In this document: positions 49,851-64,000 of the stretch, in pieces | How the letters are laid out: the number at the start of each line of letters is the position of its first letter | Position numbering within the stretch: the first letter of the stretch is position 1 | Assembly: GCF_057098645.1 (NCBI RefSeq) | Contig: NZ_CM169472.1 | Direction: 5' to 3' (one strand) | DNA: 64,000 nucleotides | Notes under the pieces: generated by a model | What the model was told of the DNA's origin: nothing | Database searches by the model: none | What the model saw: only the letters and a program-made list of their open reading frames with translations | Position numbers and translations under genes: made by a program

Positions 49851-50177
49851 ATGACTAAAAATACTCGTTTTTCCCCTGAAGTCCGTCAACGGGCAGTCCG
49901 TATGGTTCTGGAAAGTCAGGGCGAATATGACTCACAATGGGCGACAATTTGTTCCATTGCTCCAAAGATTGGCTGTACGCCGGAGACTCTGCGTGTCTGG
50001 GTTCGCCAGCATGAGCGGGATACCGGGGGCGGTGATGGAGGGCTCACCACCGCTGAACGTCAGCGTCTGAAAGAGCTGGAGCGTGAAAATCGTGAACTGC
50101 GCCGCAGTAACGATATCCTTCGCCAGGCTTCCGCTTATTTTGCGAAGGCGGAGTTCGACCGCCTCTGGAAAAAATGA
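49851..50177 (+). CDS. IS3-family transposase OrfA
   Basis: 108 aa, [35 protein letters not shown]... Confidence 0.85.
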
Positions 50178-51064
50178 TGCCACTGCTGGATAAGCTGCGT
50201 GAGCAGTACGGGGTCGGACCGCTATGCAGCGAACTGCATATTGCCCCGTCAACGTATTACCACTGTCAGCAACAGCGACATCATCCGGATAAACGCAGTG
50301 CCCGTGCGCAGCGCGATGACTGGCTGAAGAAAGAGATACAGCGCGTATACGATGAAAATCACAAGGTATACGGTGTGCGTAAAGTCTGGCGTCAGTTGTT
50401 ACGGGAAGGTATCAGAGTGGCCAGATGCACTGTGGCACGTCTCATGGCGGTTATGGGACTTGCCGGTGTTCTCCGGGGTAAAAAGGTCCGTACGACCATC
50501 AGCCGGAAAGCCGTTGCCGCAGGCGACCGCGTAAACCGTCAGTTCGTGGCAGAACGACCTGACCAGCTGTGGGTGGCTGATTTTACTTACGTCAGCACAT
50601 GGCAGGGCTTCGTCTATGTGGCGTTCATCATTGATGTGTTTGCCGGATACATTGTGGGGTGGCGGGTCTCATCGTCCATGGAGACGACATTCGTGCTGGA
50701 TGCACTGGAGCAGGCGTTATGGGCCCGTCGACCGTCCGGCACGGTCCATCACAGTGATAAAGGTTCTCAGTATGTATCGCTGGCCTACACACAGCGGCTT
50801 AAGGAAGCCGGATTACTGGCATCAACAGGAAGTACAGGCGACTCGTATGACAACGCGATGGCGGAGAGCATCAATGGTCTTTACAAAGCGGAGGTAATAC
50901 ACCGTAAGAGCTGGAAAAACCGTGCAGAAGTGGAACTGGCCACACTCACGTGGGTGGACTGGTATAACAATCGACGATTGCTGGAAAGGCTGGGCCATAC
51001 TCCTCCGGCAGAAGCAGAAAAAGCTTATTATGCTTCCATCGGAAACGATGATCTGGCAGCCTGA
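50174..51064 (+). CDS. IS3-family transposase OrfB
   Basis: 296 aa, DDE domain. Confidence 0.85.
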
Positions 51065-53608: not shown

Positions 53609-54255
53609 GAGAATGTTCCTCCGGATGTTGTTAAACCAGCCGGTGTGGTCATGAAAACAACGCACCACCTTCACCGGCATAACAACCGGGGAGAAACGTA
53701 AAAAATAATCGGGAATGTGACCGCCAGGAGATAAACGGGGAGGTTACGGTGGCTGAGCCGTACCGGTATGCCGGGTGGTTGTTACGAAACGATGCTTCCG
53801 CACGCGCGCGCGATAAAGAAGGGATGATTTTCGTGAGGAAGAGGGGAAAACTGGCGTTCTGATAATTGCAGAGTTATTTACGGGGCGGTTACGATGGGGC
53901 AGACCGTGTCCGGTGGGCAGGCGACAGGTATCACCGATGGGATAAGACTGTCTGATTGGTATTATAAATATATAAGAGAGAGCAAACACATGAGATCAAA
54001 TACATGAGTTCATATATGTGAAATAAACACGGTGAGTGTGATCAGTGGGCATGTGCAAAATGGCATCTGAATCGATCGCAGTTTGGCATTCGAATCGATC
54101 ATGATTTGGCATCCATCTCCGATCACAGTTTGGCATCACAATCGATCACGATTTGGCATGCTTCCGATCATTGATTGGCATCCTGCCAGTCACTCCGGGA
54201 ATTAACTCTTTTCACCACAGTCTCCATTGCCGTGTTTAAACCAGTGGAGACGTCA

Positions 54256-55821
54256 ATGTCCAGAAAGAGAAAATCCAGGAGCACTATGGAAACCTGTTTT
54301 AAGATCCTTCAGCTCAAGTTCGACAAGAAGCTGACTAACCGTTGTATCGGACTGACGTTACACATCAGCGCCTCAACCGTTTTTGAGGTTCTTGCCCGCT
54401 TCAAAGCCTCTTCTCTGTCATGGCCATTACCTGCTGATATATCCCATGACACGCTGGAGAAACTCATTTTTCCGCCCAAAGACACCTTTGCATCAGAGCT
54501 TGTAATGCCTGACATGTTGTACTTCGATACGGAAATGAGAAAACCAGGTGTGACGCGGCAACTGTTGTGGATGGAATACAAGGCACAGGCGGGTAACAAA
54601 GCGATGGGATACTCGCACTTCTGCCGTTGCTACCGGGAGTGGAAAAAAACGCGACGTCTCTCCATGCGCCAGGAGCATCGTGCCGGCGAAAAGCTTTTTA
54701 TCGACTTCTGTGGTCCTACGGTTCCTGTTATTAATCCGGACACCGGTGAGATACGCCGCGTGGCAATCTTCGTGGCCGTAATGGGGGCGTCCAACTATAC
54801 CTACGTTGAAGCGTGCGAAGGTCAGGACATGATGTCATGGTTAAATGCCCACAGCCGTTGCCTGACCTTCCTGGGCGGCGTACCGAAGCTGCTCATCCCC
54901 GATAACCTCAGAAGCGCAGTGAAAAAGGCCGATCGATATGAGCCTGTCATCAACGACAGTTATCAGGCACTGGCTGAGCACTATGGCACGGTTATCATCC
55001 CGGCCCGACCACGCAAACCTAAAGATAAACCAAAAGCAGAAAACGGCGTCCTCATCGTTGAACGATGGCTTCTTGCCCGCATCCGTAATGAAACCTTCCA
55101 CACGCTCAGGGCGCTGAATGCGCGCCTTAGGGAGTTACTGACAGACATGAATAACCGGCCAATGAAGGGGTACGGCAATCAAACCCGTGCAGAACGCTTC
55201 CGCATACTGGATGCGCCAGCACTCTCTCCGCTGCCTCTGGCACCTTATGAATACACGGAATACAAAGCTGTGAAGGTTGGCCCTGACTACCACGTTGAAT
55301 ATGCCCGTCACTGGTACTCCGTTCCACACGAACTGGTCGGTCAGCGTCTGTCACTGAAGGCGGGGCAGTCGGTGGTACAGCTCTGGCACAAGGGGCAGTG
55401 TGTGGCGCAACATCCGCGCAGCACACATGAATATAAACACACAACCAATCCGCTTCACATGCCAGAGCGCCACCGGCAGCACGGGACATGGACACCGGAA
55501 CGCCTGATCGAGCAGGGAAAACGTACGGGCCCGTCCACAGGCCGGGTGGTTGAATCCATGCTGAAGGCAAAACCCCATCCGGAACTGGCTTATCGTGCAG
55601 TTCTGGGGCTGCTGGCACTTCAGAAAAAATACGGCCCGGAACGGCTGGAAAAGGCCTGTTACGTTGCCCTGCACTATAACGCCCCTGACAGACGCTTTAT
55701 CGACAATCTGCTGCGTCACCATCGGGAGAACCTGGAGCTTCCATTATCCCGCCAGGGCGAACAACATCCGGCATATGCTTCAGAGCATGAAAACCTGCGT
55801 GGTCCGGGCTACTACCACTGA
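54256..55821 (+). CDS. istA: IS21-family transposase IstA
   Basis: 521 aa from MSRKRKSRSTMETCFKILQLKFDKKL...; HTH plus DDE domain. Confidence 0.8.
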   Translation: MSRKRKSRSTMETCFKILQLKFDKKLTNRCIGLTLHISASTVFEVLARFKASSLSWPLPADISHDTLEKLIFPPKDTFASELVMPDMLYFDTEMRKPGVTRQLLWMEYKAQAGNKAMGYSHFCRCYREWKKTRRLSMRQEHRAGEKLFIDFCGPTVPVINPDTGEIRRVAIFVAVMGASNYTYVEACEGQDMMSWLNAHSRCLTFLGGVPKLLIPDNLRSAVKKADRYEPVINDSYQALAEHYGTVIIPARPRKPKDKPKAENGVLIVERWLLARIRNETFHTLRALNARLRELLTDMNNRPMKGYGNQTRAERFRILDAPALSPLPLAPYEYTEYKAVKVGPDYHVEYARHWYSVPHELVGQRLSLKAGQSVVQLWHKGQCVAQHPRSTHEYKHTTNPLHMPERHRQHGTWTPERLIEQGKRTGPSTGRVVESMLKAKPHPELAYRAVLGLLALQKKYGPERLEKACYVALHYNAPDRRFIDNLLRHHRENLELPLSRQGEQHPAYASEHENLRGPGYYH

Positions 55822-55837
55822 CAGAAGGAACAACAGT

Positions 55838-56593
55838 ATGAGTGATAACCTGTTAAACAAACTGACCCAACTGAAACTCCCGGCGATGGCCGGGAGCCTG
55901 ATACGGCAGCGGGAAACGCCTCAGACCTACGACGAACTGTCGTTCGAGGAAAGGCTGACGCTGCTGGTTGATGACGAGCTTCTGAGCAGGGAAAACAGCC
56001 GTGTGGCACGGTTGAGAAAAAATGCCGGCCTGAAATACCAGGCAACACCGGAAGGGCTGCGCTATCCGGCCTCAAGAGGTCTGCGGGCTGAACAGATGAG
56101 AGAACTGCTGAACGGCCACTACATAACCCACAGGAAAAACCTGCTGATAACCGGTCCGACAGGATGTGGCAAGAGCTGGATAGCCAATGCGCTGGGCGAA
56201 CAGGCATGTCGACAGAAACACAGCGTCCGGTACTGTAGAACCGGGCGATTACTGGAACAACTGGCTCAGGGACGTGTTGATGGCAGCTGGCTGAAATATC
56301 TGAAACAGTTGCAAAAAATACAGGTTCTAATCCTGGACGATCTGGGGCTGGAACAGTTAAGTAACGCCCAGTGTAATGACCTTCTGGAGCTCATAGAGGA
56401 TCGTTACGGACAAAGCAGCACGATAGTGGTAAGCCAGTTCCCGGTAGATAAATGGCATGGTCTGATGGAGAACCCAACAACAGCAGATGCCATCCTGGAC
56501 AGACTGGTACATAACTCACACCGAGTGGTCCTTCAGGGAGAGTCACTGAGGAAAAATCCCCCGGTAGTGGAAAGCAGCGAAAAAACGCGTTAA
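55838..56593 (+). CDS. istB: IS21-family helper ATPase IstB
   Basis: MSDNLLNKLTQLKLPAMAG...; Walker A GPTGCGKS; AAA+ IstB-like. Confidence 0.85.
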   Translation: MSDNLLNKLTQLKLPAMAGSLIRQRETPQTYDELSFEERLTLLVDDELLSRENSRVARLRKNAGLKYQATPEGLRYPASRGLRAEQMRELLNGHYITHRKNLLITGPTGCGKSWIANALGEQACRQKHSVRYCRTGRLLEQLAQGRVDGSWLKYLKQLQKIQVLILDDLGLEQLSNAQCNDLLELIEDRYGQSSTIVVSQFPVDKWHGLMENPTTADAILDRLVHNSHRVVLQGESLRKNPPVVESSEKTR

Positions 56594-57568
56594 AAAGCGG
56601 TAGAAAAAGTTAAGTTCCCGGTTGATCGAATGGATGCGAATCGCTGATCGGACTTCGATGCCAATCCGTGATCGAATAGAGCGGAATACGCAGGCATGAT
56701 GAGAACGCAGTAGCAACAGACTGCGCTATCCCTGATAGCTGGCGTATAACCTGCGTATATAAAACGTACCAGCAACGCACGTGAACAGAGTGCATTAAGC
56801 ATCCGTCGTTGACACCGACCTGGTGAGTGACAGTCTGAGAGACCGGTTAAGTGGTGGTACGGGAGTAATGAGTTTGGGGAGGGTACCAGAATGTCAGTCT
56901 GGTACGGTATGCTGACAGTATCACGTTAATTGCAGCATAAAGTGATGAGAGGCTAATGGAAGTTAAAACCAGAGCAGTTCCGTCGTTGTTCATCCCGGGA
57001 GACACTGGAAAAAGTGATTTCCCACACGCGTTATAAGCTTACTCTAGCGGAGATGGAAGCCTTCAACTCTGCGGTCGATCACCGACTGGCAGAACTGACA
57101 ATGAACAAGCTTTACGATCGTGTTCCCGCTTCAGTCTGGAAATATGTCATCTGAGCGTTCGGTAATCACAACTGCATCGCGCCAGGTGTTATCCGCTTTG
57201 TGATTCTTATTGGCTCTTCTCAGGTTATTAAAAGCTGAATATGTTCCTGTTGTCGGGAACCAGGATAATACCGGGAACGTTAAGCGGTATAGCGACAACA
57301 AAGAATTCGAAATCAAAAGGGAATGGTGCCGGAGGCGTGGGCGGTAATGGGCTGATTTTCAGGTATTACCGGCTTACAGCGTGTGGTTGATATTGAGGGG
57401 CTGTGAGTTTCACGTATTTGTCAGAAACCCAGACGAGTTTTCCTGTATGAGACGAAATAAGGCAGCGGCAATACATGGAAAAATTTAATATGCTATGAAG
57501 GAGAACCTGTCGGTTACGCTTAATATAACCGGTACACTGTCAGCTCAGGGGATACATGAACCGTTATC

Positions 57569-57973: not shown

Positions 57974-58543
57974 ATGACCTACAAATACAACCCCTTCTGG
58001 CAGCAACGTATTCGTGAGACGGTGCGGCACGCACTGGATGTTCATCCCCGCCTGACGGCATTGCGGGTTGATCTGCGTCTCCCGGATGTACCGGCAGCAA
58101 CGGACGCGGCTGTGATATCCCGCTTCATCAATGCCCTGAAAGCCCGAATCGACGCTTACCAGAAACGTAAGCATCGGGAAGGTAAACGCGTGCATTCCTC
58201 GACCCTGCATTACGCCTGGGCCCGGGAGTTCGGGGAGCTTAAAGGCAAAAAACACTATCACCTGCTGCTGCTGGTCAACCGGGATACCTGGTGTCGTGCC
58301 GGCGATTACCGCGCTCCGGGGTCACTGGCCGGAATGATTAAACAGGCCTGGTGCAGTGCCCTGGGGGTGGATGCCGGATGTTATGCCACGCTGGTGCATT
58401 TTCCGGTCAGGCCGGCGGTGTGGCTGGAACGCGATGATGAAACCGGCTTTCAGCAGGTACTGGAACGTGCTGGCTATCTGGCGAAGGAGCATACCAAAGC
58501 TCGCGGCACCGGTGAGCGCAACTTTGGCTGTAGCCGGAGTTGA
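57974..58543 (+). CDS. YagK/YfjJ (inovirus Gp2-like) family protein
   Basis: 189 aa; N-terminal MTYKYNPFWQQRIRETVRHALDVHPRLTALRVDLRLP resembles the YagK/YfjJ family found in CP4-type islands (from memory); Shine-Dalgarno present. Confidence 0.5.
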   Translation: MTYKYNPFWQQRIRETVRHALDVHPRLTALRVDLRLPDVPAATDAAVISRFINALKARIDAYQKRKHREGKRVHSSTLHYAWAREFGELKGKKHYHLLLLVNRDTWCRAGDYRAPGSLAGMIKQAWCSALGVDAGCYATLVHFPVRPAVWLERDDETGFQQVLERAGYLAKEHTKARGTGERNFGCSRS

Positions 58544-58795
58544 ACACGACAGACGCGCCAATACCCGGCAAACCAAAAGTATGGGTTGTTGTCTGGTGGC
58601 AACGATGTATCCACTCGCCCACTGACTGTTTTTTACGTCAGTGTTCCATTGTGTGACAACCACAATGCTGTAACAGCAACCAGCCTGCTTTACCCAAACT
58701 CCAGTCCAGATTTTAACTGAACCGCCATTCACACCTGACCACGCTGCCCGTACCGGGACGGCTGTTGCCTGCGTGTCGTCTGGCGGCTGAGGAAT

Positions 58796-59203
58796 ATGAC
58801 TATGTACGCAAAATCCTTTCTCGCACTTGATGGCAACGGGCGTCTGACGGGTGCCCGTACCGCACAGACTGCACCTTACGATCGCTACACTTGCCACCTT
58901 TGCGGCAGTGCACTCAGATACCACCCGCAATACGACACTGAGCGTCCCTGGTTTGAACACACTGACGACGGGCTGACAGCGCACGGTCAGCAGTGTCCTT
59001 ATGTCAGACCGGAACGCAGGGAGATACGCTTGATTAAGCGTCTGCAGCAATTCGTACCGGATGCCTTACCCGTGGTGCGTAAAGCCAGCTGGCACTGCAG
59101 ACAATGTCACCACGATTATTATGGGGAGCAGTACTGCACAAACTGCCAGACCGGAGGATTCAGTATTCCCCGGACAACTCGGGAGGAAATATGCGAATTC
59201 TGA
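58796..59203 (+). CDS. Cys-rich putative zinc-binding protein, paralog A
   Basis: 135 aa; CHLCG...PWFEH and WHCRQCHHDYYGEQYCTNCQTGG motifs; GAGGA Shine-Dalgarno. Confidence 0.55.
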   Translation: MTMYAKSFLALDGNGRLTGARTAQTAPYDRYTCHLCGSALRYHPQYDTERPWFEHTDDGLTAHGQQCPYVRPERREIRLIKRLQQFVPDALPVVRKASWHCRQCHHDYYGEQYCTNCQTGGFSIPRTTREEICEF

Positions 59204-59625
59204 ACTGTTATATGGCGAATGACAGCAAGGGGCATTTTGTTACGGCGAAAGAAGCAGCGAAGCACAACCGCCGGGACGTTTTGTGCTGTGTGTCCTGTGG
59301 ATGCCCGTTAACACTTCAGCGGGGCAATGACGGACAACAACCGTGGTTTGAACATGACCAGATGACTGTCGCTGAGAAAATCCTGCTGCGATGCACCTGG
59401 CTTGACCCGGCAGAGAAAGAGGCCCGTCGTTTGCATCTGCAGGGTATGACAGTTCTGGATTATACGGTGAAGGTGAGAAAGTGGTTTTGTGTGATGTGTG
59501 ACGAAGATTATGAAGGAGAAAAGTGCTGCCCGCGTTGTGGTACCGGGGTATACAGCAGGGCGTGGGGGCGGCAGGATGTGCCGTCGGAAGATGCCAGGGC
59601 TGATAATCCGTTACAGAGGTTGTAA
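59191..59625 (+). CDS. Cys-rich putative zinc-binding protein, paralog B (translationally coupled to A)
   Basis: 144 aa from ATG 59191 (GGGAGG Shine-Dalgarno); shares CxxCG...PWFEH and W.C..C.(D/H)DY.GE..C..C.TG motifs with paralog A; 13-nt overlap with A. Confidence 0.55.
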   Translation: MRILNCYMANDSKGHFVTAKEAAKHNRRDVLCCVSCGCPLTLQRGNDGQQPWFEHDQMTVAEKILLRCTWLDPAEKEARRLHLQGMTVLDYTVKVRKWFCVMCDEDYEGEKCCPRCGTGVYSRAWGRQDVPSEDARADNPLQRL

Positions 59626-61012
59626 TGGTTGCCTCTGGCGCAGTTTGCGGTGATGCCGTTCCCGGGAATGGATTGCCAGTGCGGGGACTGTGGAGCTTAA
59701 TTCCGGTGTTGGTGGCCTTTCCGTTGATTTTGAGCCAACAGCCCTCCTGTGACTGACAGGCTGCCTCGTCATTCCATACGTATCTTCAGGTGAACAGATG
59801 CATGTCTGAGCGTACTCACGCAGCCGGCCCGGCAACCGCGGTGGTACTACGCTGGCTGCGAGAAAATACAGAAAGCACCAGAATACGCTCTCCTGTTGCT
59901 GATCAATCAGGATCTCATGCACCTACCGGGATCTAGGGCTAGAACTGATGAAACCGATTCGCACCTGGCTGAGTTAATGCTACAGGCCAGGGCATCACTA
60001 CCCCCTGACGAGCACTGTACTGTGGTATGCAGTTACAGGGGGCGTGTGCAGCCACACCTGAAAGCAGTGAGTCGTTCACGGCATTCAAAAACACGTGCCT
60101 TTCGTTCGCCGTTCCTGTGATGGCCGGCATCATTTGCTAAGCCGTTACCGACGTTATTCCCTCCGGGACACGCCTCTGGTTGAGGCTTTGCCCGGAGCAA
60201 TCGAATGAAAATAAGTTAAGTCACCGAAAGGGAGGATGTAGTCAACCGGGGGAACAGTAATAAGCCGTCGTGCTTTTATCGTACAAGTGTGTTGCGTTTT
60301 GCACCGAAAATACGATAGAGGTCGTTTATGGATTCCGCAGGGAGTGCTGATTATTATTCACTGGCAGCAGACAGCGATGTGTGTGCAGGCATTCAGGGGG
60401 ATGTTGTCAGCAGAAGGGTGCGTATAGCAGATTGTTGTTATACATGGCGTATGAAGTATTACCAGTCATGCGGAGTAGTGTGGTGAGGGGCTGTATGAGA
60501 AATCGCCACCTTCTTGTCAGAGAGGGAACGCTACCATGAAAGTCAAAAGCGATAACGCAGACCGGTACGATCGGTAGGTAAAACTGTAGCGGTGTGCTGC
60601 CGCCGAGGTCAGAATAATCTGCGCGTTTTTACGCCAGCGCCACCGACGAACAGCAGGAGATTGAGGGGAATTTGGCGGCGATAAAGACGTAGAAGAGAAA
60701 AACGGGCAATTTGCCGCATGCCCACAGAATCAGTGAGATCGTTAGCGACAGCAAAATGATCGGCAGCCAGCGGCGGCCTGCAATATCGGGATGAAGGAGA
60801 TCCTACGATATCGATGCTGCACCTGATATGTACGATCAGTAAATAGAGTACGAAACAGCAAACACGACGATAATAACGCTGGCAGCGGTGCCTGTCAGGC
60901 AAACGCCCACACGCAATAAAATAAATCAACCATCGCAGGGCCGTGATCATCCGCATACACCGCTGATGACGCGTCTAAAAACGCGTCAATATGACTTCCC
61001 CGGAACATTACC

Positions 61013-62254
61013 TCATTTCAGGGTATGGAGAATTTTTAACATCGAGTTATCTATGGTCTGTTTGACTTTTTCGTAATAGATCGGTTCAGATAATGACGAA
61101 TCCCAGGTATGAATATCGTTCTTATTAAAAGGAATGCATTTCATGGCTACTGCCTTTAACTGTTTCCCTTTTTGCTCATACTCATTGATATCATTAATGG
61201 TAAATTTCAAACTCTCTTTTCTTGCTTCTGTTATTTCAGTTGGGCATACCAGCTTTATATCTCCTAAGGTAAATGTACTGACCCCGGTGATGAAAAATCT
61301 CTCGGGGATTTCTGTATAGTGCCGAGTATTCCAGATTAAGCCATTAAACATACTATGAGAATGAGTTTTATTTTCGATATAATACTGATGCGTTCTCCAG
61401 TCACTAATGCCTGAGAGACTCATTACCATATTAATGATCATATTTGGGATAGGGCGATACCACATACTGAATACAGTAATTACAACTGGTATGCATATTA
61501 AAACAACTATGAATCCAGTGAATTTATCACCATTTCTGCGCTCATTAAGATGTATGGCACCAGGCAGAATGCCAATAGTAACAATAGCTGCTGTTAAGGC
61601 AAGGAGCATTAGCATTTCAACCAAATCACTTGTCTCCTCACTAAAATCAAGTTGGGTAAGCAGAAATAACATAGGTAATATTTGAACGATCCCGGGAGTC
61701 ATAAATTGCAAGGGTAAAAAACATAACAATCCTGGTTTTCTTGGTAATTTCTCATAGTTATCAGATTTATGCCAACTAAATCTCTTTGTTTTAAATAGAT
61801 TAAAATAGGATACAAAATAACTAAAAGCAAGCATCAATACAAAACCGGTGATACTTATGGAATAACCATTCCATCCATAAAGATAGTAAATATAGTAGCC
61901 AACAATTATACTACAGCATATAAACAAGCTATTTAGATAACAAACAGTGGAAATTCGATGTGGTATGCTTGGATAATTTTTGAAATTATCTTCATGTAAT
62001 GTGTAAATGAGGATTAGAATAAAAGAGGAAATGAAAATTACTAAGCTAAACCCAGAAAACGATACTATTATAAAAACAAAAATGATACCTATGGCTGAAC
62101 TGAGGCTTACAGTATCAAAGAAAATATCTAATCTATCTATGTTTGACAGATAGAACCATATAACAGCCATTGTGCATCCAGTAATAAATGTAGATGAGGT
62201 TATTACTGAAATAATGAATTTTTTATTCAACAGCTTTATGACAGATTTATTCAT
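61013..62254 (-). CDS. AT-rich polytopic membrane protein with C-terminal soluble domain (unknown function)
   Basis: 413 aa; multiple predicted transmembrane helices in the N-terminal roughly 270 aa, hydrophilic C-terminus; codon usage and base composition visibly AT-rich compared with flanking DNA. Confidence 0.6.
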   Translation of the reverse strand: MNKSVIKLLNKKFIISVITSSTFITGCTMAVIWFYLSNIDRLDIFFDTVSLSSAIGIIFVFIIVSFSGFSLVIFISSFILILIYTLHEDNFKNYPSIPHRISTVCYLNSLFICCSIIVGYYIYYLYGWNGYSISITGFVLMLAFSYFVSYFNLFKTKRFSWHKSDNYEKLPRKPGLLCFLPLQFMTPGIVQILPMLFLLTQLDFSEETSDLVEMLMLLALTAAIVTIGILPGAIHLNERRNGDKFTGFIVVLICIPVVITVFSMWYRPIPNMIINMVMSLSGISDWRTHQYYIENKTHSHSMFNGLIWNTRHYTEIPERFFITGVSTFTLGDIKLVCPTEITEARKESLKFTINDINEYEQKGKQLKAVAMKCIPFNKNDIHTWDSSLSEPIYYEKVKQTIDNSMLKILHTLK

Positions 62255-62884
62255 AATCCGAATTCCATACCTGATAAAATTCGTATTGTAGTGAGGACCG
62301 ATTTTTTGAGCAACTTATAACCATCGCTTAAAGCTACTTGCTACCATACATGCCGTTATCCCGAACCATAAAGCGCTTGGCAGTAACACCAACATCACAG
62401 ACAGATACTGCGGTTGCGCCAAATAAAAGAATGGCGGATAAGGTCGGCGGATTGCAACGTGATGCTGTGCTGTAGGATGACTTCTGCGGTCTCGTCCAGC
62501 GCCAGCCACTCCTGGCGGATTTTGTGTGGGGGCATGGTGTGTTCCTTTTTGTGTTGTTGGTTGCGTATAGTGCTTGTTGATGATGAAAACCGGTGTGAGA
62601 TATTTTTGCCAAAACAACTAACACTGATCAGTGTAGGTAACGAGCTTTTCAGACATAATATGGTGATGATTTACACTGGAAAAACAGGACGTAACACTGA
62701 ATAGCTCTGGAGACGATTTGCTTGAAGTGGCGTGCTATTTGTTGAAAGAAGAATTTCTGATGATACCTTATTTTAAAGGAGGCTAAAGGGAGAGGAGAGA
62801 GCCCTGTTGAAATCAACAGGACTTAATAGCTCCTCTCCGAAGGGCAAGGAGATCACCCGTGCGCCTGGTTAGGTGAAGAAGTAC

Positions 62885-64000
62885 TCAGCGTGGTTGCAGA
62901 CAGTTATCTTCTTTCCAGCCGTACAGCCACTCCATGCCGCGATAAAACTCTGCCTGCGATTTCCCTTTCCACAGCAGGTTACGAACCTGGCGTTCTACTC
63001 CCGCGGCGTGATAAACCCGTCCCATCTCACGGGTCGACCAGACAATACGCGCGGTGCGCGGAATACGTACCGACTCATACAGCGCAAAGGCTTGCGCCGC
63101 ATCACCCTCACACTGCGCCAGCGCCTTACCCAGCGTTACCGCGTCTTCCAGCGCCATACAGGCACCTTGCGCCATATATTGCGCCACTGGATGGGCTGCA
63201 TCGCCCACCAGCGTAATGCGGTTAGTGCCCCATTTCGCGACTGGTTCACGGTCGGCAGTTGACCAGCGTCGCCATGAAGTCGGTTTATCCAGCATCTGGC
63301 GCGGACGCGGGTGAATCCCCTCAAAGTAAGAGAGCACTTCCTCTTTACTGCCATCCTTCACGCCCCACTCTTCCTGCTGGCGGCTGTGGAATGTCACCAC
63401 CAGGTTATACTGCGTGCCGCCGCGCAAAGGGTAATGCACCAGGTGACAGTGCGGCCCCGCCCACAGTACCGGTGCGTTAATGCGCAAATCTTCCGGCATA
63501 TCGGCACAATCGATAACCGCACGGTAGACAACATGTCCGGTGACACGCGGCGCATCGCCCAATAAGCTCTGGCGCACCACTGACTTCACGCCGTCACAGC
63601 CAATCAGAATATCGCCGGTCCAGCTATTGCCGCGATCGTCAAACACGGTGACATCGTCTTCCGTCTCGCGAATATCCACGACGTTGGTGGAGGTGTGATA
63701 TTCCACGTCCGGATGCGTCAGTACCGCTTCCCACACCGAGGCGTGAATATCAACCCGGTGGATCACCGCGTAAGGACCGCCGAAATGGTCACGAAAGGCC
63801 TGCCCGGTTTCAATGCGCACCACTTCTTCGGCGTTCACCGCATCCATCATGGTAATGTGATCGGTAAACACCGCGCGCTGGCGGGCAACTTCGCCGACGC
63901 CGAGGCTGTCCAGCGCCGAAAACGCATTTGGCCCCAACTGGATGCCCGCGCCAATCTCACCGATCTCATGCGCCTTTTCCAGCAGCACCACTTTGATCCC
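62885..64000 (-). CDS. FAD-dependent aromatic-ring monooxygenase (salicylate/3-hydroxybenzoate hydroxylase-like), N-terminus beyond window end
   Basis: ORF runs to the window edge; ...VLLEKAHEIGEIGAGIQLGPNAFSALDSLGV... and C-terminal GDAAHPVAQYMAQGACMALEDA motifs typical of group A flavin monooxygenases. Confidence 0.7.
   Translation of the reverse strand, partial: GIKVVLLEKAHEIGEIGAGIQLGPNAFSALDSLGVGEVARQRAVFTDHITMMDAVNAEEVVRIETGQAFRDHFGGPYAVIHRVDIHASVWEAVLTHPDVEYHTSTNVVDIRETEDDVTVFDDRGNSWTGDILIGCDGVKSVVRQSLLGDAPRVTGHVVYRAVIDCADMPEDLRINAPVLWAGPHCHLVHYPLRGGTQYNLVVTFHSRQQEEWGVKDGSKEEVLSYFEGIHPRPRQMLDKPTSWRRWSTADREPVAKWGTNRITLVGDAAHPVAQYMAQGACMALEDAVTLGKALAQCEGDAAQAFALYESVRIPRTARIVWSTREMGRVYHAAGVERQVRNLLWKGKSQAEFYRGMEWLYGWKEDNCLQPR

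Follow-up and report, generated by a model that had tools for sequence, protein, structure and literature searches.

What does a strongly AT-rich gene for a many-helix membrane protein do in a chromosomal island of Escherichia coli? The gene in question lies near the right-hand end of the window, by which we mean the whole stretch of 64,000 nucleotides of contig NZ_CM169472.1 (NCBI RefSeq assembly GCF_057098645.1) that was analyzed. A preliminary description made from the letters alone had offered as candidate roles a membrane effector of an abortive-infection or defense system, a Wzy-like polymerase, and an acyltransferase, and had added that sequence alone does not decide among them, a judgment that was correct and that largely still holds. 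Our analysis showed that the gene travels as a self-contained unit and that library searches place its product outside any known family, with relatives that are nearly all annotated as "hypothetical." As for its role, the reading that we tentatively favor, mechanism included, is a stand-alone, envelope-acting exclusion or defense factor of mobile elements.

The gene is a horizontally transferred one-gene cassette

An open reading frame (ORF) of 413 codons occupies the minus strand exactly where it had been placed by the preliminary description (Table 1). Its GC content is 0.329 versus 0.517 for the whole window, the minimum of all 1242-bp windows (z = -4.35), and all three codon positions are AT-rich (GC of 0.34, 0.33, and 0.32 at positions 1, 2, and 3, respectively). 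Its GC thus does deviate as had been supposed. Third-position GC (GC3) of the gene, 0.32, is likewise below that of every other ORF of 300 aa or more in the window (0.42 to 0.71). The AT-rich zone runs from ~61001 to ~62400 and includes ~150 bp of the 5' flank, so that the flanks described as AT-rich are so on the 5' side but not on the 3' side, where GC is back at ~0.49 straight after the stop codon.

The gene is real and under purifying selection. Stop codons are expected at ~0.075 per codon at the composition of the gene, which by simple arithmetic gives a probability of ~1e-14 that a 413-codon frame stays open by chance, and the gene is 99.9% identical to an annotated coding sequence of E. 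coli O145:H28 RM12761. Ratios of nonsynonymous to synonymous substitution rates (dN/dS) were 0.33 against a 94.9%-identical copy in E. coli AH19B041 and 0.15 against a 73%-identical copy in E. coli 2012C-4502. The C-terminal 148 codons were the most constrained (0.08 and 0.07, respectively), and the membrane part gave values of 0.60 and 0.21. RefSeq calls the start differently among strains, with 385 aa from Met29 (WP_001336100.1) in RM12761 and LAU-OXA and 413 aa in AH19B041 and 2012C-4502. Since residues 2-28 are conserved across genera and the homologs (53 compared) are mostly 411-422 aa long, the 413-aa start is better supported, and residue numbers herein refer to the 413-aa protein. The short call, for which window positions 62170-62254 are the region in question, would truncate the first membrane helix.

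The window represents an E. coli chromosome of the O145:H28 type, its first 25 kb (tkt, speA, galP, and neighbors) being 100% identical to RM12761 across 95% of the stretch. The island setting proposed for the gene was borne out by a tRNA-Phe gene and, beyond it, a stretch for which the annotation of RM12761 lists, in order, a tyrosine integrase, fecIRABCDE, small regulators, YagK/YfjJ ("inovirus Gp2"), two zinc-ribbon proteins, the membrane protein gene, and a 3-hydroxybenzoate/gentisate operon. A foreign origin, likewise proposed, is supported by several observations. Only 94 of 5,426 complete E. coli genomes carry the gene (87 of these at ≥99% identity), the 95%-identical copy occupies an unrelated island and the 73%-identical copy an integrative and conjugative element (ICE), and the homologous gene lay 8-29 GC points below its flanks in every one of six host genomes checked. 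In LAU-OXA the right-hand neighbor (the gentisate operon) is retained, and the left flank differs from window position 60425 on. A further 99%-identical copy occurs on a 9-kb contig labeled "MAG: Collinsella sp." (L034, 6263-7498), which is most likely a mis-binned E. coli contig.

The extent of the mobile unit was evident from a blastn comparison of the window with AH19B041, in which 94.9% identity was restricted to a 1.38-kb stretch (Table 1) and dropped abruptly beyond both ends. Since the homology is confined to the gene and ~70 bp on each side, and the AH19B041 copy occupies a different, unrelated island, the gene is a self-contained, horizontally transferred cassette of one gene that moved between islands. 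Terminal repeats of the cassette were limited to short, imperfect ones consistent with chance. Inside it, a promoter-like site and a perfect 8-bp hairpin were read by eye. The promoter-like stretch is 100% conserved in the AH19B041 copy, while its -35 hexamer matches at 3 of 6 positions and the site falls below the threshold of the consensus scan, from which it is absent. The hairpin is conserved in AH19B041 save for one arm mismatch; it has no T-tract, hence it is no canonical intrinsic terminator, and it is not listed by the terminator scan. Weak as both are as evidence, they could serve the gene.

Two small ORFs beside the gene were considered as partners and rejected because they lie outside the cassette common to AH19B041. 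One, of 46 aa and in a stretch of normal GC, stands upstream between the gene and the gentisate operon (RefSeq WP_001134749.1, "hypothetical") and is overlapped by two plus-strand terminator-like hairpins. The other, of 115 aa and rich in Arg, Cys, and Leu, looks spurious and, by its equivalent position, appears to be the "hypothetical" WP_001326345.1 of LAU-OXA.

Architecture and family of the protein

Hydropathy and AlphaFold agree with the many hydrophobic segments and the hydrophilic C-terminal domain first described, with helices at residues ~14-265 and a mixed alpha/beta region at ~285-385. The product is thus a polytopic inner-membrane protein, in which 7-8 transmembrane helices precede a soluble domain of ~130-150 aa. 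The full-length AlphaFold2 model (predicted local distance difference test [pLDDT], 78.5; predicted template modeling score [pTM], 0.70) shows helices over residues ~14-280 followed by a beta-rich domain. Modeled alone with 70 diverse sequences, the C-terminal 148 residues reached a pLDDT of 86.2 and are predicted to form a linker helix, a small barrel of 5-6 strands, two helices, and two further short strands. Among 139 full-length relatives, just two residues, Cys337 and Cys373, never vary. Next in conservation are P231 (99%), W308 (98%), and L335 and P338 (97%), then G282, Y35, R41, D43, S77, and G331; conserved positions of the membrane domain include S77, P194, and P231-G232, and a 65-sequence alignment agrees with this pattern.

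The location of the C-terminal domain can be approached from its cysteines and from the charge of the loops. Exactly two cysteines occur in this domain in 123 of the 139 relatives and four in another 12, i.e., two or four in 135. Since two cysteines are invariant, further metal ligands are lacking, and cysteine counts are even, Cys337 and Cys373 probably form a structural disulfide, which would place the domain in the periplasm. The family-mean numbers of lysine plus arginine per loop were 3.1 (N-terminal tail), 1.0 (loop 1, net negative), 2.1, 4.3, 0.7 (net negative), and 2.1, and the last three values read as in, out, in, again leaving the C-terminal domain outside. A periplasmic domain held by the Cys337-Cys373 disulfide can thus be predicted fairly safely. 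Mean pairwise identity was highest in the linker helix (0.69), the domain end (0.64), the barrel core (0.63), and transmembrane helix 1 (TM1) with its R-L-D motif (0.57); most of the membrane part ranged from 0.19 to 0.49, and the least conserved segments were the long cytoplasmic loop (0.19) and TM4-5 (0.29). Since the peaks fall on the linker, the barrel, and the TM1 motif, the conserved surface corresponds to the predicted periplasmic face, and it is fairly safe to regard the R-L-D motif after TM1, the linker helix, and the beta-barrel core as the functional surface. It is similarly safe to suppose that the protein has no cytoplasmic signaling or enzymatic output, its cytoplasmic loops being short and unconserved. 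A lipoprotein reading of the sequence I-T-G-C at residues 24-27 was rejected because many relatives (e.g., those in Serratia and Enterobacter) have Leu or Phe in place of the cysteine.

Relatives were numerous and almost uniformly unnamed. A word-indexed search returned 53, named "hypothetical" or "uncharacterised," and those with a recorded source were all from Enterobacterales. An exhaustive profile search of 1.84 billion representatives returned 237 clusters (50% identity) at E ≤ 0.001, whose full-length members are mostly 370-440 aa and align end to end. All sampled members were from Gammaproteobacteria (Trabulsiella, Xenorhabdus, Serratia, Pantoea, Klebsiella, Rahnella, Pseudomonas, and Kushneria), and recorded sources of the family were Enterobacterales, Pseudomonas, and Halomonadaceae, with the same architecture kept throughout. 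Foldseek against AFDB50 gave 101 matches at E ≤ 0.001, and among those listed nearly all were "uncharacterized protein" from the same groups.

Libraries of characterized proteins, in contrast to these collections, were silent. Neither the protein nor 65 diverse relatives matched any Pfam family at E ≤ 0.001 (Acyl_transf_3, Wzy_C, EpsG, and the GT-C families included), the protein had no match in PHROGs, and nothing matched among PDB sequences or PDB folds. The best structural matches were helical bundles of the RnfA/E, NqrD/E, and MtrC/D/E type, and the broad-profile homology search brought no named relatives. What lay far below threshold was of no use: YtzH at E 0.23, a CoA-activase domain (NCBIfam) at E 0.093, and LT-B/cholera toxin B in a search of PDB with the near-family profile (E 0.02-0.7), the last falling in the membrane segment and vanishing with a broader profile, hence attributed to chance. 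No paper mentioning WP_001336100 or its plasmid-borne relative WP_001072358 was found in the literature. Across Pfam, NCBIfam, PADLOC, PHROGs, and PDB, therefore, no characterized housekeeping enzyme or other named match was found. Tests of defining features likewise place the protein outside the Wzy, acyltransferase-3, lipoprotein, TraS/Eex, and phage superinfection-exclusion families and outside every PADLOC family.

A divergent form of the protein is common on plasmids. In PLSDB, 1,270 records carry a full-length relative at ~25% identity (E ~1e-19 to 1e-20, 92% coverage), 1,089 of them from Escherichia and 966 conjugative; most of the carriers are conjugative IncF plasmids of E. coli. One further match, at 99% identity, is on a 4.9-Mb record, evidently chromosomal. 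The plasmid form (WP_001072358.1; 389 aa; "hypothetical") keeps R-L-D-I-F, L-x-C-P, and the second cysteine, and its gene stands in a fixed block of RepFIB repB, a tyrosine recombinase, a 62-aa ORF, the WP_001072358.1 gene, and a PapB-like regulator. The exact WP_001072358.1 sequence is indexed in 32,872 blocks of an assembly collection.

Genomic settings of relatives and candidate functions

Genomic settings were tallied for ~16 independent contexts, a tally that is best taken as anecdotal, since a wider near-family census gave only six loci. No neighbor gene is conserved across these contexts. Restriction-modification, Mrr, McrBC, HNH, or PADLOC candidate (PDC) genes occur within 10 kb in ~7 of 16 and are directly adjacent in three, a small sample with no control set. 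In Serratia fonticola and S. liquefaciens, the family gene is divergent from hsdM of an hsdMSR-mcrBC block, ~260-320 bp apart. In Trabulsiella, mrr is 100 bp away, followed by hsdR-S-S-M, and tRNA-Leu(CAA) lies at the far end. The Siccibacter gene adjoins a protein matching the PADLOC candidate PDC-M15B (E 5e-92) and has a prophage tail gene nearby, the only locus at which proximity to a prophage was seen. The order in Samsonia is SulP, an unknown gene, an HNH restriction enzyme (1.5 kb from the family gene), FosA, and the family gene, and in Enterobacter hormaechei, glyoxalase and major facilitator superfamily transporter genes flank the gene, with symE, an HNH nuclease, and mrr 5-8 kb off. 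In Klebsiella the family gene is the first to follow an integrase linked to tRNA-Leu(CAA); the small element around it also carries AlpA, RelE/MqsA, and, 8.5 kb off, HNH nucleases (L015, 8373-11233). The Kushneria gene, too, comes first behind an integrase of this type, among flagellar genes and with no tRNA detected (L045, 8674-11287). A 38%-identical form in E. coli has an IclR regulator on one side and a type I secretion system on the other.

Some of these loci show further features. In Kushneria, a 14-nt imperfect direct repeat, ATTAAACATGGCGC / ATCAAACATGGCGC (L045, 9978-9991 and 11365-11378), brackets the gene alone and may be due to chance. Three genera appear to use a common variable hotspot, in that the island lies by core genes of one type, a beta-class carbonic anhydrase gene in both Serratia and Klebsiella and a SulP transporter gene in both Klebsiella and Samsonia; the accompanying restriction genes differ, being hsd and mcrBC in Serratia (L002/L005) and HNH nucleases in Klebsiella (L015) and Samsonia (L039).

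An exclusion or defense role fits best because restriction genes are adjacent in three divergent lineages, the slot after a tRNA-type integrase is used in two, relatives reside on ICEs and conjugative plasmids and beside toxin-antitoxin modules, and the gene is autonomous. The protein, carried by mobile elements, would act alone at the envelope. The target of its periplasmic module would be either something foreign on its way in (a tail-tip or injection component of a phage, or a comparable translocating machine) or a host inner-membrane component that invaders use. The proline-kinked helical bundle would then either simply anchor the block or open and depolarize the membrane, leading to abortive infection. 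Such behavior resembles that of the single-gene membrane exclusion proteins of mobile elements, a kinship that we infer. T4 Imm, P22 SieA, and HK97 gp15 are likewise stand-alone, borne on mobile DNA, located in the inner membrane, and devoid of an enzymatic domain, and action at the periplasmic face is what we propose here. They differ in that they share no sequence or fold similarity with the family protein, which is 3-5 times larger and has a predicted disulfide-bonded periplasmic domain. Kiwa KwaA, RexB, and the transmembrane effectors of CBASS and retrons are also multi-pass proteins of defense islands with a possible membrane-perturbing output; however, they use partner genes, whereas the family gene has neither a conserved neighbor nor a PADLOC match. 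The role of membrane effector of a defense system, as first suggested, was accordingly not confirmed, and without a conserved partner gene the protein is not the effector of a multi-gene system.

Several observations weigh against an exclusion or defense factor. No family of PADLOC-DB v2.0.0, candidate PDC families included, matched at E ≤ 1 when the protein and four divergent relatives (the plasmid form among them) were searched, and neither WP_001336100 nor WP_001072358, the chromosomal and plasmid forms, appears in the DefensePredictor supplements. Superinfection-exclusion proteins of phages are encoded as (pro)phage morons, whereas the family is absent from 50,697 phage records (tblastn) and from PHROGs, unlike the classical genes of that kind. 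Defense genes might be found near roughly a quarter of island genes in general, by our rough estimate, so that their enrichment here is modest and statistically untested. Several members have ordinary metabolic genes for neighbors, that of Enterobacter cloacae lying among hydrolase and transporter genes and that of Pseudomonas fluorescens between oprD and an amidohydrolase gene, and four to five contexts are instead associated with type VI secretion systems (T6SS). Proteins engaged in an arms race with phages do not typically keep a sensing domain as strongly conserved as the putative one here. The topology is also ambiguous in part, residues 52-91 crossing the membrane once or twice, with the C-terminal domain periplasmic in both favored solutions.

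The T6SS-associated contexts point to another reading, that the protein confers immunity to envelope-acting toxins (T6SS effectors, colicins, or contact-dependent inhibition toxins), which its periplasmic domain would neutralize or block on the periplasmic side of the inner membrane. The Citrobacter werkmanii member is inserted among the core genes of a T6SS, with tssE on one side and a TssA/VasL-like gene on the other; vgrG-Tli3-Tli3-Tle3-PAAR lies 1.6 kb from the Rahnella member and vgrG-DcrB-Rhs ~5 kb from that of Xenorhabdus; the AH19B041 copy, in an island with remnants of an IS3 insertion sequence (IS) and of Rpn, is 3.8 kb from a T6SS cluster (tssB); and an Rhs gene is near one chromosome-integrated copy of the plasmid-type gene. 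A membrane-anchored, disulfide-bonded periplasmic domain, as predicted here, is moreover the usual format of immunity to toxins that act in the periplasm. Immunity genes, however, normally adjoin the cognate toxin gene, and no toxin gene is consistently paired with the family; T6SS genes are absent from most contexts. Immunity proteins also usually diversify with their toxins, whereas this C-terminal domain is strongly conserved (dN/dS 0.07-0.08), and known immunity proteins are far smaller than this one, which has ~400 aa and 7-8 helices. We regard toxin immunity as unlikely.

Modification of the envelope itself is, in our estimate, quite unlikely. The protein would then be a new enzyme or lysogenic-conversion-like factor acting on O-antigen, enterobacterial common antigen, lipid, or peptidoglycan, by analogy with Oac, OafA/OafB, GtrC, or Wzy, which are likewise AT-rich in their genes, polytopic, and sometimes integrase-adjacent. 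Serotype-converting elements show an arrangement similar to the tRNA-integrase-gene order of Klebsiella (tRNA-Leu) and the integrase-gene order of Kushneria; a membrane domain with a C-terminal periplasmic domain recalls OafA/OafB, and an R-x-D motif is conserved in the first predicted periplasmic loop. In contrast to those enzymes, the family protein has no AT3 or SGNH domain, fold match, or conserved catalytic residues: conservation falls mainly on C, W, P, G, and L, and a His/Asp/Ser/Glu constellation is missing. Acyltransferase-3 proteins match PF01757 with His/Arg motifs, with SGNH added in OafA/B, and here there was neither a Pfam match nor an SGNH-like fold match for the C-terminal domain. 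Polymerases and ligases of the Wzy type are recognized by a profile match (Wzy_C, EpsG), 10-14 transmembrane helices, and a large periplasmic loop with conserved Arg/His, a combination that this protein does not show. Glycosyltransferases of the GT-C type (GtrC, ArnT, PglB) are recognized by a GT-C fold whose first periplasmic loop bears a catalytic acidic residue. O-antigen, capsule, gtrAB, or other polysaccharide genes were found at none of the ~16 independent loci. Together with the empty Pfam search, the sub-threshold NCBIfam score, and the absence of the family from phage genomes, these results leave the Wzy-like polymerase and acyltransferase of the preliminary description unsupported.

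A conjugation-related function, such as entry exclusion or another recipient- or donor-side barrier in the inner membrane, appears very unlikely. TraS and Eex are also inner-membrane proteins, and traS and eex follow traG in F-like and SXT-like systems; the Xenorhabdus homolog directly follows the TraG_N gene of an ICE remnant (with hsdR/S 3 kb away), the 73%-identical copy of E. coli 2012C-4502 lies in the transfer region of a mating-pair-formation type G (MPF-G) ICE, between the RAQPRD operon and RelE/ParE, and the distant plasmid branch occurs on 966 conjugative plasmids. Known exclusion proteins, however, measure ~150 aa against ~400 aa here and show no similarity to the family, and their obligate linkage to traG or mating-pair genes is seen in only 2 of the ~16 contexts and not in the window, most members, the window copy included, being unlinked to type IV secretion genes. 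The two ICE copies sit in different slots, as cargo would. The IncF homolog stands by the RepFIB replicon, outside the tra region, and no relative was found in the examined stretch around the RepFIB replicon of the F plasmid. Lastly, a spurious or decaying island ORF without function, for which one might cite the "hypothetical" label, the disputed start (385 versus 413 aa), and a location in AT-rich island DNA of the kind often silenced by H-NS, is effectively refuted by the improbability of the open frame, dN/dS well under 1, full-length relatives of the same architecture in several orders, and a confident AlphaFold fold. The remaining probability falls to functions outside those named.

Surrounding features and implications

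Table 1. Features of the gene, its product, and the surrounding window (window coordinates unless a locus number is given)
Feature	Position	Strand	Remarks
Membrane protein gene	61013..62254	-	413 aa; ATG start; stop codon 61013-61015 (ORF listing)
Membrane domain, residues ~14-265	61460..62215	-	7-8 predicted transmembrane helices; hydropathy and AlphaFold2
C-terminal module, residues 266-413	61016..61459	-	Predicted linker helix 268-280; beta-barrel core and two helices 285-385; poorly predicted tail
Motif W33-x-Y-L-x-x-[IL]-x-R41-L-D43-[IV]-F	62120-62158	-	Directly after TM1
Cys337 codon, motif L-x-C-P	61244..61246	-	Invariant in 139/139 full-length relatives
Cys373 codon	61136..61138	-	Second invariant cysteine, 139/139 full-length relatives
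Mobile unit, 1.38 kb	60942..62321	-	Gene plus 71 bp 3' and 67 bp 5'; sole stretch common with AH19B041
Promoter-like TTGCTC-17 nt-TACAAT	62285..62313	-	~30 nt 5' of ATG; read by eye
Perfect 8-bp hairpin TGACGCGT ttttag ACGCGTCA	60967..60988	-	25 nt past stop, within cassette; read by eye
115-aa ORF	60609-60956	-	Rejected as partner
46-aa ORF	62396-62536	-	Rejected as partner
Two terminator-like hairpins	62500-62546	+	Overlap the 46-aa ORF
tRNA-Phe gene	38585-38660		Followed by stretch annotated in RM12761 as integrase, fec operon, and further genes
YagK/YfjJ gene	57974-58543		ORF list
First zinc-ribbon ORF	58796-59203		ORF list
Second zinc-ribbon ORF	59104-59625		ORF list
Stretch without annotated gene in RM12761	59626-61012		~1.4 kb
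Gentisate (mhb) operon	62832-64000		Distinct allele
IS21-family element	54175-56693		istA ~54256-55821; istB end 56593
ALIL pseudoknot element	5367-5483	-	Rfam RF01497, ~120 bits
ALIL pseudoknot element	50132-50248	+	Rfam RF01497, ~120 bits
ES036 (CssrF) small RNA match	6791-6833	-	Rfam; 53.5 bits
Plasmid-block example loci	L022 8127-9110; L023 5941-7110; L025-L029 10001-11170		RepFIB-adjacent block

The gentisate (mhb) operon adjoining the gene is a distinct allele. A 1.7-kb query of the operon end and the intergenic spacer was matched over at least 80% in only 89 genomes, essentially the carriers of the gene, while ~540 other genomes (O157:H7 included) have a gentisate operon elsewhere, unaccompanied by the gene and for the most part at 90-96% identity, the similarity beginning ~50 bp past the monooxygenase gene. 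On the other side, no gene is annotated in RM12761 along the ~1.4 kb that separates the zinc-ribbon genes from that for the membrane protein. The YagK/YfjJ and zinc-ribbon genes (57974-59625) form a conserved small-gene set typical of CP4-57/P4-like islands. A later RefSeq start reduces the overlap of the second zinc-ribbon gene with the first to only ~13 bp, and a similar YagK/YfjJ gene is near the AH19B041 copy too (L041, 4987-5553).

Mobile elements account for further differences. Positions 40000-64000 align to RM12761/RM13516 in four pieces (80% covered); an IS21-family element is present, and not until 56693 does the window resemble RM12761 again. The strain of the window therefore has extra IS copies relative to those genomes. 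Two ALIL pseudoknot frameshift elements indicate two IS3-family elements, one in the otherwise core tkt-speA-galP region and the other in the island. A match to the small RNA ES036 (CssrF) scored well above its gathering score of 37.6.

What makes the family of interest is that curated libraries hold no relatives, that the periplasmic fold is apparently new, that the gene moves as a cassette, and above all that the IncFIB branch is so common. It is possible, though doubtful, that the gene is the chromosomal representative of an unrecognized single-protein envelope immunity family with a new periplasmic fold, of which the RepFIB-adjacent gene of more than a thousand sequenced IncF plasmids would be a divergent branch. 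In that case a barrier to phages or other invaders, hidden so far and acting from the periplasmic face of the inner membrane, would be present on the dominant resistance and virulence plasmids of E. coli. Should the protein prove inert or merely structural, the gene would be an ordinary island ORFan. A functional assignment would in any case annotate tens of thousands of genes. If the function is exclusion or defense, it would bring to light a single-protein system that faces the periplasm and is new in mechanism, as well as a trait so far unrecognized in plasmids that are dominant in the clinic.

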